This document shows, piece after piece, positions 3,403 to 11,656 of a stretch of 11,656 nt of DNA. The number at the start of each line of letters is the position of its first letter. The first letter of the stretch is position 1. Both the position numbers and the translations under genes were made by a program. The stretch comes from a virus (Duplodnaviria; Heunggongvirae; Uroviricota; Caudoviricetes): IMG/VR virus record IMGVR_UViG_2778261571_000003; one strand, written 5' to 3'. The notes under the pieces are model-generated. The model searched no databases. It saw nothing but the letters and a program-made list of their open reading frames with translations, and was not told the DNA's origin.

Positions 3403-3927
3403 ATGAAGTTATGGCCTGTGTTGACTGGCATTGCACTCTCTTTCACTCTTATAGCATGTAAGGCCCCGACACCACCTAAAGGTGTGCAGCCGATTACAAA
3501 TTTTGACGCCAACCGCTACCTCGGAAAATGGTATGAAATAGCTCGCCTCGAGAACCGGTTCGAACGTGGTCTGGAACAGGTCAGCGCTACTTATGGAAAA
3601 CGGAACGACGGAGGGATTCGTGTACTTAACCGTGGATACGATCCAACGAAAAATAAATGGAGCGAGAGCGAAGGTAAAGCATACTTTACTGGAGATACTA
3701 AAACTGCAGCATTGAAGGTTTCGTTTTTTGGCCCCTTCTATGGTGGCTATAATGTAATCAAACTGGATGATGAGTATAAGTATGCTCTTGTCAGTGGTCC
3801 GAACAGAGAATACCTATGGATTCTGGCAAGGACCCCAACTATTCCAGATAAAGTAAAAGCAGACTATGTGCGAACCGCTCAAAAGTTGGGATTCAATGTC
3901 AATGAATTATTATGGGTTAAACAATAA
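3403..3927 (+). CDS. blc: Outer-membrane lipoprotein Blc (bacterial lipocalin) homologue
   Basis: 174-aa ORF with signal peptide and lipobox (..FTLIAC|KAPTPP). Lipocalin signature recalled from E. coli Blc: NFDANRYLGKWYEIARLENRFERG, GKAYFTG, LKVSFFGPFYGGYNVI, YLWILARTP. Only gene of the operon region on the plus strand; clearly diverged from the E. coli chromosomal Blc as I recall it. Confidence 0.88.
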   Translation: MKLWPVLTGIALSFTLIACKAPTPPKGVQPITNFDANRYLGKWYEIARLENRFERGLEQVSATYGKRNDGGIRVLNRGYDPTKNKWSESEGKAYFTGDTKTAALKVSFFGPFYGGYNVIKLDDEYKYALVSGPNREYLWILARTPTIPDKVKADYVRTAQKLGFNVNELLWVKQ

Positions 3928-6986: not shown

Positions 6987-7481
6987 TCATTTCCAATTGC
7001 AAGACTGTGAAATTTTTTCCACAACCTTATCAATCTCAGACAAGTCAAACTCAACTACTTGCATAGTTGATCCATAAGGTTCAAACCCAAAAATAGCTTT
7101 TTTATGCTTAGCCAAGGTCTTTATAAATTGTATTGGTTGTGGAGCAAATGCAGAATCACCGCCTTCCCCACCTCCCCAAACACTCTTGACCGGCTTTCCG
7201 CCATCTAACCGCACTGTAATTCTTGGGTTGTCCGAACCCATATAATCATTGAATGATAAATAGGCATCTGTTTTGTTATCACTACAACGCAACACCAGTG
7301 AAGTTGCACGATCAGTACCTGCTTTGTTATATGAATCTGGTGATAAATTAAGAGCCACAAAGTCAGTCTGGTCAGTCATTTTATTTATCTCAGACTTTGT
7401 TATCCACGGCCCTAACTTCTCTACACCAGCATTTGCTGTAAACGAGGCACTTATAACAAAGGCTAAAATAAATTTTCTCAT
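6987..7481 (-). CDS. Secreted/periplasmic protein of unknown function (cargo gene)
   Basis: 164-aa ORF with a classical signal peptide (MRKFILAFVISASFTANA|GVEK...). Strong RBS AAGGAG 8 nt before ATG 7481. AT-rich relative to neighbours. No family recognised; no counterpart at this position in lambda. Confidence 0.7.
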   Translation of the reverse strand: MRKFILAFVISASFTANAGVEKLGPWITKSEINKMTDQTDFVALNLSPDSYNKAGTDRATSLVLRCSDNKTDAYLSFNDYMGSDNPRITVRLDGGKPVKSVWGGGEGGDSAFAPQPIQFIKTLAKHKKAIFGFEPYGSTMQVVEFDLSEIDKVVEKISQSCNWK

Positions 7482-7627
7482 AACCCTATCTCCTTGGATT
7501 CAAAGAACTAAATATTATCAAGTCTCTTGCCACTAGAAAACCCACTTTATTTCCAAACTCTGATGGCATTCCTGAAAATCCGCTTCATACTCACTTGCCC
7601 CGCCCTATCATCCTGAGTAGCTAACCG

Positions 7628-7801
7628 TTAAACAAACGTTCGCCAGACCTTACCATCAATGACCAGGATTCCTGCCCGCGTCATTTTTGCCGCAGCCTTA
7701 TTTATGCTGGTTAATGTCACACCTGTTGTCGCAGCAACGTCCGGCGCACAGAAGCTCTTGTGCGTCTCCAGATAATGAATAATTGCCTCTTTGCCCGTCA
7801 T
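7628..7801 (-). CDS. ren: Ren-like protein, truncated (57 aa; lambda Ren is longer)
   Basis: Not in the ORF track. Hand translation from ATG 7801: MTGKEAIIHYLETHKSFCAPDVAATTGVTLTSINKAAAKMTRAGILVIDGKVWRTFV*, which matches the recalled N-terminal half of lambda Ren up to ..KVWRT and then stops (TAA 7630..7628). ATG overlaps the P stop (ATGA). Confidence 0.6.
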   Translation of the reverse strand: MTGKEAIIHYLETHKSFCAPDVAATTGVTLTSINKAAAKMTRAGILVIDGKVWRTFV

Positions 7802-8499
7802 ACAGTTGCTCCTTTCAGTCCGAACTTCGCTTTGATTTCTGCGATCTTCGCCAGAGCCTGAGCCCGGTTAAGTGGTCTACCGCCCATGACAGGAAGTTGT
7901 TTTACTGGTTCAGGTATAGCCTCACCACGGTTAATTCGTGCGGTCATACAGGACAGTTCATCGGCAGCCTTGCGCCGTAATTCCGCGTCAGTCAACGCAT
8001 TGGCCCGCATGTTCTGATACAGGTTGGTAACCAGCCAGTAGTGCGCGTTTGATTTCCACGGATAAGACTCTGCATCCGGATACAGCCCGCGCTTCCGGCA
8101 ATACTCGTAAACCATATCAACCAGCTCGCTGGCGTTTGGCAGCCCGGCGGTAACGGATGCTTCTTCCCGGCACCAGGCGACAAACTGCCCGGGTGATGGC
8201 AGGAATGGTCGATTCTGCCGACGGGCTACGCGCATTCCAGCGTTAACCTGTTCCATTGTGGTGATCCCGTTTTCCCGGAAAGCCAGAACCCACTGGCGGC
8301 GAATTTCGTTCAGTTCGTTCTGGTCACGGTTAGCCAGGCTCGCAGGGAAAGTTGCCAGCAACTGGCTGAATACACCGTTGATGATCTGCGCTACCTGCTG
8401 TACCTGCGGCTTTTCGTCGTACTGTTCCGGCATGTTGTTGGCGATCCGGCGCATCTGCTCACGGTCAAAGTTAATCATCTGTGCGGCGATGTTTTTCAT
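7798..8499 (-). CDS. P: Replication protein P (lambda P-type DnaB helicase loader)
   Basis: From ATG 8499: MKNIAAQMINFDREQMRRIANNMPEQYDEKPQVQQVAQIINGVFSQLLATFPASLANRDQNE...GLKGATV (233 aa), almost residue-for-residue lambda P as recalled. ATG overlaps the O stop (ATGA at 8499..8496). The track ORF start at 8604 is an upstream in-frame extension inside O. Confidence 0.95.
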   Translation of the reverse strand: MKNIAAQMINFDREQMRRIANNMPEQYDEKPQVQQVAQIINGVFSQLLATFPASLANRDQNELNEIRRQWVLAFRENGITTMEQVNAGMRVARRQNRPFLPSPGQFVAWCREEASVTAGLPNASELVDMVYEYCRKRGLYPDAESYPWKSNAHYWLVTNLYQNMRANALTDAELRRKAADELSCMTARINRGEAIPEPVKQLPVMGGRPLNRAQALAKIAEIKAKFGLKGATV

Positions 8500-9425
8500 A
8501 GATCCACCCCGTAAATCCAGTCTGTGTTTGTCAGGTCGAGTTTTGGTTTGCCGGCTGTCACGCCAGCCTGTTGCTTGTTTCGGTTGATTTCGAGCTGGGT
8601 CCACTTGTCGCGGAGTTTGGCCGGACTCAGCACGTTACCGGACCAGAAGTTGTCCTGGCATGCCCAGCGGAACAGTACACACATGTCGCGGTGGTTACGT
8701 CCGTCACGTTCACGCATCAGGCGGATATCGTTAGCCCACCCTGCAAAATTCGGTTTTCTGGCTGATGGCGCGATGGTCTTCACCATGTCAAACATCCACT
8801 CTGCGGCGGTCAGGTCTTCTGCTGTCCCCCACTTGCTGCCGCTCTGAATTGCAGCATCCGGTTTCACCACAGGAAGGGCATTTTCTGGCTGGTCAGAGGA
8901 TTCGCCATAATTCTCGGACGAAAAAGGTTTTATATTGTCTTTTGTTAGTTTGTCTTTTGTGTTTACCTGATTCGGGTAAATGCCTTTACCTGATTTGGGT
9001 AAGCTTTTCTTACCTGATTCAGGTAAATTTACCTCTTTCAGGTAAACTTTATTTTTCTTACCCGATTCGGGTAATGTTGACCATTCACTGACCACATTAT
9101 TGATGCCGATATTCCGCCCGCTCTGAATAAGAATTCCACGCTTTACCAGAACACTTTTTGCAGCAGAACACTTGTGCGGCAATATCCCGGTCAATTCGGA
9201 AAGTTGCTCGTTGCTCACCCAATCCAGTCTTTTATTAAAGCCATATGTTTTGCGCATGACAGCCAGGAAGACCAGAAGCTGGTGCTGTGTTAATCCGGCC
9301 AGCATCACAGCTTCCAGCAACTCATTTGCAATGCGCGTATAACCATCGTCGAGATCTGCCACGCGCCGCTCCTTTTGTGCCACATCCGGCACTGGAAAAT
9401 TGAATATCTCAGCAGTGTTTGCCAT
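8496..9425 (-). CDS. O: Replication initiator O (lambda O family) with embedded origin
   Basis: From ATG 9425 (RBS GGGAGGA 4 nt upstream): MANTAEIFNFPVPDVAQKERRVADLDDGYTRIANELLEA..., ending ..LDLTNTDWIYGVDL like lambda O. The central linker (..LPESGKKNKVYLKEVNLPESGKKSLPKSGKG..) is encoded by the iteron repeats. The track start at 9515 is an upstream extension. Confidence 0.9.
   Translation of the reverse strand: MANTAEIFNFPVPDVAQKERRVADLDDGYTRIANELLEAVMLAGLTQHQLLVFLAVMRKTYGFNKRLDWVSNEQLSELTGILPHKCSAAKSVLVKRGILIQSGRNIGINNVVSEWSTLPESGKKNKVYLKEVNLPESGKKSLPKSGKGIYPNQVNTKDKLTKDNIKPFSSENYGESSDQPENALPVVKPDAAIQSGSKWGTAEDLTAAEWMFDMVKTIAPSARKPNFAGWANDIRLMRERDGRNHRDMCVLFRWACQDNFWSGNVLSPAKLRDKWTQLEINRNKQQAGVTAGKPKLDLTNTDWIYGVDL
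8921..8962. other. AT-rich segment flanking the iterons (candidate DNA-unwinding element of the origin)
   Basis: AAAAAGGTTTTATATTGTCTTTTGTTAGTTTGTCTTTTGTGT lies immediately on the O-downstream side of the iterons and contains a tandem direct repeat TTGTCTTTTGT (8935-8945 and 8950-8960). Iterons followed by an AT-rich stretch is the ori-lambda architecture. Confidence 0.5.
8963..9074. repeat. Origin iterons: five 17-bp dyad-symmetric repeats inside O
   Basis: TTACCTGATTCGGGTAA (8963-8979), TTACCTGATTTGGGTAA (8986-9002), TTACCTGATTCAGGTAA (9010-9026), TTACCTCTTTCAGGTAA (9029-9045), TTACCCGATTCGGGTAA (9058-9074). Each is a near-palindrome TTACC..GGTAA, spaced 19-29 bp apart, in the middle of O as in ori-lambda. 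Confidence 0.8.
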
Positions 9426-9511
9426 AATTCCTCCCGCAATGAGTGCGTTACGATTTGCACCTGAAAGTCGGCTCTGTTCCCGCAGACCGGCTTTCGCCAT
9501 TTCCGAACCTG

Positions 9512-10051
9512 TCATATTGCCCCCAGCATGGTGGTGACCATCGCCATCAGTGGACCAGCCAAATCCGGGTCCACACGAAACATCGACACAATGCCTTCAC
9601 TCATCTCCTTCAGTTTCTGGTGGCGTGGTGCGTTGAGAATGACAGCCTGTTTTGCCTCACTGAGTTCCTTTTCCATTTCAGCCAGCCGAGCCATGAAGCT
9701 ATCCTGCTCAACCAGGTGGCCGCGATATTCCAGCGGTAGTACCGCCAGAATTGCCGGGGTCAATTCACGCACGTTATTTCGGTATTTTTCAGAATCGAAT
9801 TTGTTATCGAGGAAGCGGAACAGCTTCTGGCGTGCACGGCTGACATCATCAGGGAAATCGATGGTGCCGCCGCCCTGCTCCCGATACTCATTCACAATGA
9901 GTGCGGCAACGACATCCTGATTATCTACAGCCGACCAGGCGCGGACGGCATCACGGATTTTTTCGTGGCCTGGAGCTTGTTTTGTTTGAGAACGATTTAT
10001 CACCGCAGTCGGGCTAAATCCGCTAGTCTGTTGGTATGTAAGTGGTTGCAT
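9512..10051 (-). CDS. YdaT-family protein (CII-position regulator; annotated 'toxin YdaT' in Rac-like prophages)
   Basis: 179-aa ORF in the cII position between the Cro-like gene and O. Motifs IVNEYREQGGG and ELTPAILAVLPLEYRGHL resemble those I recall from Rac YdaT. RBS AAGGAG 7 nt before ATG 10051. Confidence 0.65.
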   Translation of the reverse strand: MQPLTYQQTSGFSPTAVINRSQTKQAPGHEKIRDAVRAWSAVDNQDVVAALIVNEYREQGGGTIDFPDDVSRARQKLFRFLDNKFDSEKYRNNVRELTPAILAVLPLEYRGHLVEQDSFMARLAEMEKELSEAKQAVILNAPRHQKLKEMSEGIVSMFRVDPDLAGPLMAMVTTMLGAI

Positions 10052-10096
10052 AATTGACTCCTTTAGTTTGAATTGACTGTTAAGTTGATTGCTTAT

Positions 10097-10109
10097 TGTT
10101 AAAGAGCGT
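10097..10109 (-). promoter_or_regulatory. boxA-like element (candidate nutR) between the Cro-like gene and the YdaT-like gene
   Basis: Minus-strand sequence CGCTCTTTAACAA matches the boxA consensus recalled from lambda nut sites and rrn antiterminators (CGCTCTTA / TGCTCTTTAACAA). It sits just downstream of the Cro-like stop, where lambda has nutR. No clear boxB hairpin was found by eye. Confidence 0.45.
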
Positions 10110-10120
10110 GAAATGGAAAT

Positions 10121-10351
10121 TTAAGCTGCGTTCTTTTCAGTGTGTGGAAACAACTTCGGAAGATCCGGGCGAATCTGGTATGCCTTCACTACTCCACCAG
10201 TAGCCGTAACAATGCTGCCGACATGTTCAGGGGATACCTTTGCTTTGTTGTGAAGCCACTTATAGACGGCCTGCTGTGAAACTTCGCAGGCAGCGCCTAG
10301 TTTCTTTTGTGAACCAACGATATTGATCGCTGTTTTGATGGCTGGGTTCAT
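10121..10351 (-). CDS. Cro-like HTH regulator (YdaS family)
   Basis: 76-aa ORF divergent from the repressor gene. HTH-like segment (..GSQKKLGAACEVSQQAVYKWLHNK..) and overall similarity to Rac YdaS as recalled. RBS GGAGG before ATG 10351; stop TAA 10123..10121. Confidence 0.75.
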   Translation of the reverse strand: MNPAIKTAINIVGSQKKLGAACEVSQQAVYKWLHNKAKVSPEHVGSIVTATGGVVKAYQIRPDLPKLFPHTEKNAA

Positions 10352-11494: not shown

Positions 11495-11656
11495 CTGATG
11501 AATCCCCTAATGATTTTGGTAAAAATCATTAAGTTAAGGTGGATACACATCTTGTCATATGATCAAATGGTTTCGCGAAAAATCAATAATCAGACAACAA
11601 GATGTGCGAACTCGATATTTTACACGACTCTCTTTACCAATTCTGCCCCGAATTAC
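11495..11656 (+). mobile_element. IS10 (Tn10-type IS4-family element), outside end; continues beyond window end
   Basis: From 11495 the sequence CTGATGAATCCCCTAATGATTTTGGTAAAAATCATTAAGTTAAGGTGGATACACATCTTGTCATATGATCAAATGG... matches the IS10 outside end as I recall it, including the terminal repeat, the IHF-site region and the Dam GATC (11561-11564) in the transposase promoter region. The 9 bp just outside (TGCTCAGCC, 11486-11494) fit the IS10 target consensus NGCTNAGCN. Confidence 0.85.
11602..11656 (+). CDS. IS10 transposase, first 18 codons (continues beyond window)
   Basis: ATG at 11602 followed by MCELDILHDSLYQFCPEL, the recalled N-terminus of IS10/Tn10 transposase. Confidence 0.8.
   Translation, partial: MCELDILHDSLYQFCPEL

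Follow-up and report, generated by a model that had tools for sequence, protein, structure and literature searches.

Does the O gene of this prophage contain the origin from which the prophage would replicate, and if so, which initiator specificity does that origin have? We analysed a window of 11,656 nucleotides (11.6 kb) from a tailed virus (Caudoviricetes; IMG/VR record IMGVR_UViG_2778261571_000003). An earlier note on this DNA had claimed that five copies of TTACC-N7-GGTAA in the middle of O, followed on the O-downstream side by an AT-rich stretch with a tandem repeat, reproduce the architecture of ori-lambda with a different iteron sequence. Our results agree with this description. We are confident that the region is the vegetative (theta-mode) origin of an E. 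coli lambdoid prophage, which has the build of ori-lambda and a different initiator specificity.

Five palindromes and an AT-rich element inside O

The elements of the proposed origin and the gene that contains them are as follows.

8496..9425, minus strand: gene O, replication initiator (Phage_rep_O), 309 aa, with the start codon ATG at 9425 preceded by GGGAGGAATT
9058..9074, no strand: iteron 5, TTACCCGATTCGGGTAA, perfectly palindromic over 17 bp, an extra copy at the distal end; frame L-P-E-S-G-K
9029..9045, no strand: iteron 4, TTACCTCTTTCAGGTAA; other frame, V-Y-L-K-E-V-N
9010..9026, no strand: iteron 3, TTACCTGATTCAGGTAA; frame L-P-E-S-G-K
8986..9002, no strand: iteron 2, TTACCTGATTTGGGTAA; frame L-P-K-S-G-K
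8963..8979, no strand: iteron 1, which adjoins the AT-rich element, TTACCTGATTCGGGTAA; other frame, I-Y-P-N-Q-V-N
8921..8960, no strand: AT-rich element, presumed unwinding region, 25% GC, with a tandem 15-bp repeat containing TTGTCTTTTGT

The dyad TTACC-N7-GGTAA occurs exactly five times in the window (8963-9074), and the arms of all five copies are exact. The pattern search tolerated one mismatch, had a chance expectation of 0.26 matches and found no further copy elsewhere in the 11.6 kb; none of 200 shuffled sequences reached five dyads. Repeat finding grouped these five copies into a single family, whose starts lie 23, 24, 19 and 29 bp apart. The array therefore consists of at least four tandem, dyad-symmetric repeats of about 15–19 bp with roughly two-turn phasing, as in ori-lambda.

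The conserved unit is larger than the two arms. We compared 417 iterons from related arrays (85 distinct ones). Their seven inner positions read YGAATCA and carry 0.8–1.85 bits, whereas the flanks carry 0.06–0.43 bits. Hence, the unit is a near-palindromic 17-mer, TTACCYGAWTCRGGTAA, that extends beyond the two 5-bp arms. The spacing is conserved as well: 60 of the 85 arrays are spaced 29-19-24-23 and another 16 are spaced 19-24-23. Iteron 5, which sits 29 bp from the neighbouring copy, is the one missing in related four-iteron arrays. The inner bases of iteron 4 are an atypical variant that is nevertheless kept across genera. In 77 near-identical IMG/VR copies, only 3 of 50 arm positions segregate, all of them as singletons, compared to 7 of 31 positions in the linkers between iterons (5 non-singleton). 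An Rfam scan of the whole window gave no match in or near the origin.

Directly past the last iteron, on the downstream side of O (which lies on the minus strand), GC content falls to 25% (about 8920-8960), compared to 50–60% in the remainder of the gene. This is again the arrangement of ori-lambda. The two copies of the tandem 15-bp repeat lie at 8930-8944 and 8945-8959. The repeat motif TTGTCTTTTGT, which reads ACAAAAGACAA on the O sense strand, is common to the origins of lambda/434, P22, Klebsiella phages and the TTAGC-type relatives described below (class B). The element also holds the conserved motif ACAAAAGACA, shared by lambda/434, P22 and other origins.

One could also argue that the repeats serve the protein, as a repetitive flexible linker of LPESGK-like units between the O domains, and that the symmetry of the DNA is incidental. 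The region is indeed translated: the iterons encode approximately residues 118-155, between the DNA-binding and the partner-binding halves of O, so that the origin lies inside its initiator gene. In an AlphaFold model, residues 118-197, which include the iteron-encoded stretch, are disordered (pLDDT below 50) and link two folded domains. Natural variants without 16 or 24 residues in frame exist, as would be expected for a tolerant linker. It is very unlikely that this argument explains the repeats, for the following reasons. First, copies 5, 3 and 2 encode LPESGK or LPKSGK, but copies 4 and 1 are read in a second frame and encode the unrelated peptides VYLKEVN and IYPNQVN. Hence, what is conserved is a DNA word and not a peptide, and we rejected the peptide-repeat explanation on this ground. 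Second, every copy shows inverted symmetry at the DNA level, and a repeated peptide would not require such symmetry. Third, it is the DNA word that is kept across genera and that changes together with the recognition helix of O. Furthermore, the roles of linker and origin are compatible; in lambda the same DNA serves as both linker coding sequence and origin.

The O gene as a mosaic of two modules

The halves of O and its neighbour P differ in their relationship to lambda.

9078..9425, minus strand: N-terminal Phage_rep_O domain of O, residues 1-116, predicted winged helix
9141..9179, minus strand: predicted recognition helix, residues 83-95, PHKCSAAKSVLVK, whose sequence tracks the iteron type across loci
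8915..8960, no strand: mosaic junction, where identity to lambda/434 DNA rises from 0.5–0.6 to 0.92 or more
8496..8915, minus strand: lambda-type C-terminal half of O, near-identical to lambda/434 O
7798..8499, minus strand: gene P, lambda-type helicase loader, 233 aa, 98% identical to phage 434 P

O is annotated in databases from an upstream ATG at 9515, which gives a protein of 339 aa. Residues 21-115 of the 309-aa form match Pfam Phage_rep_O (E=3.5e-34). The gene directly downstream matches Phage_lambda_P (E=8e-62), and the 434 proteins used in our comparisons are annotated as homologues of lambda O and lambda P. O is therefore followed by a helicase-recruiting partner that matches its C-terminal domain. 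In lambda, the N-terminus of O binds the iterons as a dimer, the C-terminal half is the P-binding domain, and the two are connected by a flexible linker (PMC6022878).

The N-terminal domain (residues 1-116) is 50% identical to lambda/434 O, whereas from about residue 168 on the identity is about 96%. The earlier note had described this contrast between a diverged N-domain and a lambda-like C-terminus and P, and had read it as a modular swap of origin specificity that keeps the P-interaction domain. The DNA bears this out: identity to lambda/434 is low (0.5–0.6) across N-domain and iterons and high (0.92 or more) across C-domain and P, with the change at 8915-8960. Judged from these alignments, the O gene is a recombinant of two modules joined at the conserved AT-rich sequence. 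The first module, comprising N-domain, iterons and AT-rich element, is inherited as one piece and is related to P22 gene 18; the second, comprising the O C-domain and P, is of lambda type.

The AlphaFold model shows residues 47-108 as a helix-helix-helix-hairpin (pLDDT 70–85). A Foldseek search of the model against the PDB gave weak matches (best E 0.02, none at 0.001), but the best of these are uniformly dimeric winged-helix regulators, which lends soft support to the predicted fold. By sequence, we found no meaningful match to the N-domain among known structures (best E=0.26).

Recognition helix and iterons change together

If the N-domain recognizes the palindromes, then helix and iteron should be co-inherited. 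We compared 140 non-redundant O loci. All 123 loci with a helix of the PHKCS(A/S)AK type carry three to nine TTACC dyads right after the N-domain, and all 17 loci with other helices lack them and carry other iterons instead (TTAGC-N7-GCTAA, TCCCTC..GAGGGA or CATTTCAACCGTnATGGAAA), in the same 19/20-24-23 bp phasing as in lambda. The 123 loci are mostly close relatives and phylogenetically non-independent, so that the independent support corresponds to about nine genera: the dyads occur in E. coli, Klebsiella, Enterobacter, Pseudocitrobacter, Pantoea, Xenorhabdus, Providencia, Arsenophonus and Sodalis. The earlier note had named homologous O genes with the same N-domain and without the repeats as evidence that would count against it. 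We saw no such genes; a different helix goes with different repeats.

A locus from Enterobacter sichuanensis (L008) at first sight breaks this rule. Its N-domain is 74% identical to that of the window, and the 2.5 kb on either side contain no TTACC dyad. However, L008 differs exactly in the predicted recognition helix, which is replaced, and it has an array of four repeats of its own, which lies at the corresponding position and is phased in the same way (20-24-23, as in class B). We therefore rejected it as a refutation of the link between N-domain and iterons. L008 also carries an inserted T5orf172 domain, and helix, insertion and array are all three common to four IMG/VR contigs. Among the sister classes, the helix IHHTHVCKAK goes with TTAGC-N7-GCTAA, APTKCSTAKN with the shorter TTACC dyad of P22 and AATRCSTAKN with the L008-type array.

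The same data bear on the possibility that the dyads are sites for another factor, such as a repressor or a host, packaging or partition protein, and not the iterons of the initiator. Palindromes of 17 bp are typical operators of many dimeric regulators. However, the dyad type tracks the recognition helix of O and not the immunity region or the partner gene; dyads of this type accompany lambda-P, DnaC-like and Toprim-helicase (primase-helicase) partners and are found in different genera. Position, copy number and phasing match the curated O-binding iterons of 434, 21 and phi80, and the window holds no dyad outside the array. Of all the explanations that we considered, a foreign factor is the least probable.

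Comparison with known origins

With ori-lambda (lambda, 434, 21) the window shares an origin in the middle of O, made of tandem dyad iterons followed by an AT-rich element with ACAAAAGACA. Counted from the AT-rich side, the curated iterons of phage 434 are spaced 23, 24, 20, compared to 23, 24, 19 (and 29) in the window. The iterons themselves differ, being 18–19 bp in lambda (TCCCTCAAAACGAGGGA) and 17 bp in the window (TTACCYGAWTCRGGTAA), with four copies in lambda versus five here, one of them extra and distal. The recognition helix differs as well (VKRCNEAKLELVR in lambda, PHKCSAAKSVLVK in the window). Reading by eye, we found no lambda-type iterons at the origin of the window. Our regular expression for these iterons was too strict (it found 0 on the phage 434 control), and we therefore took lambda-type iterons from curated features and from reading the sequence. 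With an N-domain identity of 50% and another helix, the window falls outside the lambda specificity group (lambda, 434, 21 and Stx phages; TCCCTC..GAGGGA). The origin of phage 21 is lambda-type, unlike that of the window.

Shiga-toxin phages 933W and P27 carry six lambda-type iterons, the extras being added at the end of the array that is distal to the AT-rich element. In Stx phages the extra iterons lengthen the O linker, and only the four proximal ones are bound efficiently, although the extras are still needed (PMC7466680). Iterons and O of these phages keep lambda specificity with few substitutions, whereas the window differs in the specificity itself.

Among experimentally named systems, gene 18 of P22 is the nearest relative of the specificity module and belongs to the same clade (N-domain 59% identical, DNA about 73%). 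The two share the TTACC/GGTAA half-site and a nearly identical AT-rich repeat, TTGTCTTTTGT. However, P22 has four iterons of 15–16 bp (TTACCGATYTGGTAA), whose spacer is 1–2 bp shorter than in the 17-bp unit, and its recognition helix is another one (APTKCSTAKNELIR; APTKCSTAKN versus LPHKCSAAKS in the window). We therefore do not place the window in the P22 specificity group. The C-terminal domain of the gene 18 protein is unrelated to that of O, and its partner is a DnaB-type helicase (gp12) and not a lambda-P loader.

Phage phi80 follows the same design: its O-like gene (gene 15), in which four gp15-binding repeats are annotated, is followed by a P-like gene (gene 14). Its iterons (TTCCCGAAAACGGGAA, about 21-bp spacing) are not those of the window and its N-domain is very different, which places the window outside this group, too. 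Klebsiella and Enterobacter prophages such as Klebsiella phage ST11-VIM1phi8.2 share with the window the iteron word, an array of five copies spaced 29-19-24-23 and the AT-rich element. The N-domain of the ST11-VIM1phi8.2-type O is 83% identical to that of the window, but the C-terminal domain is unrelated and an IstB/DnaC-like AAA+ ATPase lies downstream in place of lambda P.

How the origin would fire

Iteron binding, unwinding, recruitment of P and DnaB and firing of the origin are inferred by homology with lambda. O dimers would bind each 17-bp palindrome TTACCYGAWTCRGGTAA through the winged-helix N-domain, with residues 83-95 (PHKCSAAKSVLVK) as the recognition helix. The four copies near the AT-rich element, phased by 23-24-19 bp, would assemble a lambda-like 'O-some', which would strain and open the adjoining element (8921-8960). 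The lambda-type C-terminal domain of O would then recruit the lambda-type P carrying the host DnaB helicase, and release of P by host chaperones would lead to bidirectional replication. The fifth palindrome (9058-9074) probably plays an auxiliary part, as the additional distal iterons do in Shiga-toxin phages.

Prevalence of the allele and state of this copy

The allele is found in 2,297 of 5,426 complete E. coli genomes (42%) at 95–99% identity, sometimes in two or three copies per genome. A further 16 phage records, which represent 15 distinct sequenced phages, contain it, and none of them has the origin annotated. Phages recovered as such, among them PhiR70_1, 4A7, Perceval, 1W and 3W, carry it at about 97–98% identity, so that the allele is likely still in use.

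Nevertheless, the architecture in the window could be a non-functional relic in a decaying cryptic prophage. In strain TB06053, which is 99.5% identical, ren is a frameshifted pseudogene. The right end of the window is broken by an IS10, whose RNA-OUT is the sole Rfam match, and there are variants with a frame-breaking 23-bp deletion. Although somewhat less remote than the explanations by peptide linker or foreign factor, a relic is still improbable: the reading frames of O and P are intact, the 77 copies hardly vary in the iteron arms, and the allele is both widespread in E. coli and present in phages isolated as such. Decay would also bear on this copy only, and not on the identity of the element. 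Given the ren pseudogene and the IS10, this prophage copy may be defective and its origin silent in this host, even if the allele is functional elsewhere.

Implications

The origin exists as described and is very widespread. It varies a theme known for a long time in an ordinary way, and it leaves our understanding of how such origins work unchanged. We found no binding, footprint or replication data for the TTACC iteron class in the searchable literature. We tentatively suggest, without leaning towards it, that the TTACC-class O/origin module is an experimentally uncharacterized specificity among the commonest lambdoid replicon types of E. coli, judged against the origins of lambda, 434, 21, P22, phi80 and Shiga-toxin phages. 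The iteron sequence and copy number of the phage 82 origin were reportedly published in 1979–1981, and the origin in the window may be identical to it; a taxon exists for this phage, but there was no record of its O or ori among our matches in the phage collection.

If the suggestion is correct, the sister classes form a natural series of specificity swaps on a fixed 19/20-24-23-bp scaffold, and this series could disclose the code by which O-type initiators recognize their iterons. The correspondence between helix and iteron across these classes provides ready hypotheses for specificity swaps. It would also become possible to predict replication cross-talk, or competition between origins, for prophages that reside together and have this module in common.

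The practical value lies mainly in annotation, since approximately 2,300 complete E. coli genomes and the 16 phage records carry the origin unmarked. A simple rule would be to look for a PHKCSAAK helix, then arrays of TTACCYGAWTCRGGTAA and then ACAAAAGACA. The comparison also makes the modular build of these replicons visible: one DNA-recognition module is combined with partners of the lambda-P, DnaC-like or primase-helicase kind, and in P22 a related version is combined with a DnaB-type helicase, the joint between the modules being always at the conserved AT-rich sequence.

A probable origin inside O

A search for TTACC-N7-GGTAA, with one mismatch allowed, returns five copies in the window. 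The arms are exact in all five, 0.26 matches are expected by chance, and none of 200 shuffles gave five. An independent repeat finder recovers the same five copies as one group (spacing 23, 24, 19, 29), so the iterons described in the earlier note are real and correctly placed. GC content is 25% at 8920-8959 versus 50-60% in the rest of O, and this stretch contains a tandem 15-bp repeat with TTGTCTTTTGT. Because O is encoded on the minus strand, the AT-rich element lies downstream of the iterons in the direction of O, as had been claimed.

Features of the window
Right part of the window, plus strand: S24 repressor
9512-10351, minus strand: YdaS-like (76 aa, HTH) and YdaT-like (179 aa) genes, at the cro and cII positions
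8496-9425, minus strand: O, 309 aa from an ATG preceded by GGGAGGAATT (Pfam Phage_rep_O, E=3.5e-34)
8963-8979, 8986-9002, 9010-9026, 9029-9045, 9058-9074: iterons, copies 1 to 5 counted from the AT-rich side (pattern search and repeat finder)
7798-8499, minus strand: P (Phage_lambda_P, E=8e-62)
7533-7801, minus strand: ren
6987-7481, minus strand: TagO/VasI-like gene
3403-3927, plus strand: lipocalin-family gene

A consensus was taken over 417 iterons in 85 distinct related arrays. The seven inner positions, which were free in the search, read YGAATCA and carry 0.8-1.85 bits, versus 0.06-0.43 bits in the flanks. Hence, the iteron unit is the near-palindromic 17-mer TTACCYGAWTCRGGTAA; the copy at 9058-9074 is a perfect palindrome.

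It is the DNA word that is conserved across the five iterons and not the peptide it encodes. In the sense direction of O, copies 5, 3, and 2 translate as L-P-E/K-S-G-K; a different frame applies to copies 4 and 1, which give V-Y-L-K-E-V-N and I-Y-P-N-Q-V-N. Polymorphism among 77 near-identical IMG/VR copies points the same way: the arms have 3 segregating positions out of 50, each a singleton, and the linkers between iterons have 7 out of 31, five of them non-singletons. The iterons and the AT-rich element code for O residues 118-197, which in the AlphaFold model form a disordered linker between two folded domains, the layout also described for lambda O (PMC6022878).

Individual IMG/VR copies of this allele (L054-L133 in our collection of O loci) show further variation. 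One contig has the AT-rich 15-bp repeat triplicated (three copies of ACAAAAGACAAAATA), in one a 23-bp deletion takes out an iteron and would put O out of frame, and one has an in-frame stop in a linker (GGTAAGTAAAG).

Counted from the AT-rich side, the iterons of the window are spaced 23-24-19(-29). The curated 434 iterons are spaced 23-24-20, as are the arrays of two other iteron types discussed below (the TTAGC class and the L008 type). The window array is a lambda-like four-iteron core with one extra distal copy. Among the 85 distinct TTACC arrays, the spacing is 29-19-24-23 in 60 and 19-24-23 in 16, and expansions are repeats of the distal 29+19 unit. Because this 48-bp unit is in frame, there are natural O variants that lack 16 or 24 residues; they keep three or two iterons. 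In Shiga-toxin phages, distal extra iterons are bound weakly yet are required for replication, while the proximal four are bound efficiently (PMC7466680). These extra iterons are the best available model for copy 5.

Initiator helix and iteron type

The O loci that we collected, from a set with one genome per species and from IMG/VR, were reduced to 140 non-redundant loci; for each we noted which helix aligns to residues 80-93 and which downstream dyad array is best. All 123 loci (123/123) with the helix (L/F/S)P(H/N)KCS(A/S)AK have 3-9 TTACC-type dyads; the repeats are thus present in O genes that share this part of the N-domain. Four loci with the helix IHHTHVC(K/T)AKN have four copies apiece of TTAGC-N7-GCTAA. 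Lambda-type helices go with TCCCTC..GAGGGA iterons, and an Aeromonas locus has TGTCC..GGACA. Across these sequences, iteron type tracks the helix.

One locus, L008 from Enterobacter sichuanensis, has an N-domain 74% identical to that of the window and no TTACC dyad within 2.5 kb on either side. It was the only apparent exception. Residues 1-77 match the TTACC class, but AATRCSTAKNELIR takes the place of the helix region, and four CATTTCAACCGTnATGGAAA-like repeats, spaced 20-24-23, stand just before the AT-rich element. Since the replaced helix comes with its own array, we reject L008 as an exception: it follows the rule. In this O gene (L008:2501-3622), a T5orf172 (GIY-YIG-like) domain is inserted after the N-domain and before the origin, and four IMG/VR contigs (L134-L137) share all these features. 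The L008-type variants have a DnaC-like partner downstream.

The TTAGC loci (L017-L020) form a sister class, one base per arm away from the window's iteron, with a 17-bp unit and 20-24-23 spacing. They come from Scandinavium, Siccibacter, Enterobacter, and a contig that bears the label Paraclostridium.

In the AlphaFold model, residues 83-95 of the window's O (PHKCSAAKSVLVK) are the third helix of a helix-helix-helix-hairpin unit (pLDDT 70-85). Structural neighbours are weak (best E=0.02) and uniformly dimeric winged-helix regulators (FNR/CRP, MarR, CodY).

Mosaicism and distribution

Residues 1-116 of O are 50% identical to the lambda-type O of phage 434, versus about 96% from about residue 168 on and 98% for P, in agreement with the claim of a diverged N-domain joined to a lambda-like C-terminus and P. 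DNA identity to 434 is 0.5-0.67 from 9425 down to about 8960 (with a low of 0.30 over the iterons), rises to 0.78-0.88 over the AT-rich element, and reaches 0.92-1.00 in the stretch that begins at 8915 and runs through the end of P. This switch places the crossover at the AT-rich element, whose ACAAAAGACA core recurs in lambda/434, in P22, in Klebsiella phages, and in all other O-type origins that we inspected.

The TTACC module (N-domain, iterons, and AT-rich element) is found with differing O C-domains and downstream genes.

Replication partners of the TTACC module
Lambda P: window; Pantoea (L011, L012); Arsenophonus (L015)
IstB/DnaC-like AAA+ ATPase: Klebsiella phage ST11-VIM1phi8.2; Enterobacter (L005); Xenorhabdus (L010)
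Toprim and DnaB-like protein, 620 aa: Pantoea (L013); Providencia (L014)

In P22, the gp12 helicase is the partner of the related module. One module with several partner types is direct evidence for the modular swap that had been proposed; the junction lies at the AT-rich sequence. An E. coli O variant of 395 aa (P0005) has most of the lambda-type C-terminal domain tandemly duplicated.

Sixteen phage records, representing 15 distinct E. coli phages (PhiR70_1, 4A7, Lambda_4C10, 1W, 3W, and Perceval among them), carry the N-domain and iterons at 97-98% identity; none of the 16 annotates the origin. The allele occurs in 2,297 of 5,426 complete E. coli genomes, and its 90%-identity protein cluster has 7,825 members. 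The module is about 80% identical at the DNA level in Klebsiella phages, and P22 gene 18 shows about 73% DNA and 59% protein identity to it. The annotated P22 origin has 15-16-bp TTACCGATYTGGTAA repeats and the same AT-rich repeat as the window.

Assemblies of unrelated bacteria, among them Bradyrhizobium, Pseudomonas, Shewanella, Neobacillus, and Ruminococcus, also gave many matches with a lambda-type N-domain, 50% identical to that of the window (L021-L033, L035, L039, and others). Their contigs are either short or, at low coverage, about 48 kb long, and the matches look like contamination with lambda control DNA.

Comparison with known origins

The reading of the element as an ori-lambda architecture with a different iteron holds: layout, phasing, and AT-rich core are shared. 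It belongs to the family of lambdoid origins embedded in O, and we infer that it works like ori-lambda. If so, O dimers would bind each palindrome through the winged-helix domain, as in lambda (PMC6022878; PMC7466680). The phased array would form an O-some that strains the adjoining AT-rich element, the lambda-type C-domain of O would recruit P-DnaB, and release of P by host chaperones would start theta replication. Binding, unwinding, and firing at the window origin are expected on this analogy.

The iteron specificity differs from that of lambda, 434, and 21, and from that of phi80. P22 gene 18 has a sister specificity; the spacer of the window is 1-2 bp longer and its helix is different. 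The division into N-terminal ori specificity and C-terminal P interaction, with functional hybrids, has been known since the late 1970s (Furth and Yates 1978, as cited in PMC6022878). That lambda, P22, and L use different O-type proteins on different internal iterons has been stated explicitly (bioRxiv 10.1101/2020.10.05.325894).

We found no description of the iteron word in the searchable literature, a comparison that does not extend to the published phage 82 origin. The phage 82 origin probably has about five repeats. The rusA/DLP12-like nin region of the window also resembles the one reported for phage 82 (with reference to Mahdi et al. 1996), so identity with ori82 is a real possibility. 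The origin is an ordinary case of a well-understood design, a new or at least unannotated one.

Prophage context

The window comes from an E. coli lambdoid prophage and matches the TB06053 chromosome at 99.5% identity over 11.5 kb. The minus strand encodes all genes except the repressor and the lipocalin-family gene. Leftward from the right end, the order is S24 repressor, YdaS-like cro, YdaT-like gene, O, P, and ren, followed by a TagO-like gene, the nin region (ybcN, ninE, rusA), Q, and the lysis genes. The YdaS-like and YdaT-like genes stand in place of lambda-type Cro and CII, and the annotators of phage Perceval labelled the latter 'CII regulatory protein'. The TagO/VasI-like gene between ren and the nin region belongs to a family associated with type VI secretion (Pfam VasI, E=5e-6). 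The TB06053 annotation gives ren a frameshift and an internal stop.

Upstream of the ATG at 9425, the O frame contains no stop for 30 codons (9425-9515, minus strand), and public annotations (PGAP, phage Perceval) give a 339-aa O from 9515 that overlaps the stop of the YdaT-like gene. Since lambda O and homologues from other genera begin at the MANTAE/MTNTAK position and GGAGG precedes 9425, the 309-aa O looks like the real form. A sigma-70-like promoter (9400-9428, plus strand; TTGAAT-17-CATAAT with TG upstream) overlaps this start codon and faces the opposite way to O, entering the YdaT-like gene at its 3' end. It is like lambda pO, the oop RNA promoter, in position and orientation; there was no match to any Rfam family, and no clear terminator was seen downstream.

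Homology to TB06053 ends at 11497, within a gene annotated as a serine/threonine protein kinase. An IS10 end (CTGATGAATCCCCTAATGATTTTGGTAAAAATCATTAAG) begins at the same position (region 11497-11656), with an RNA-OUT match at 11540-11609 (minus strand, 98.8 bits). Hence, the window's copy carries an IS10/Tn10 insertion.
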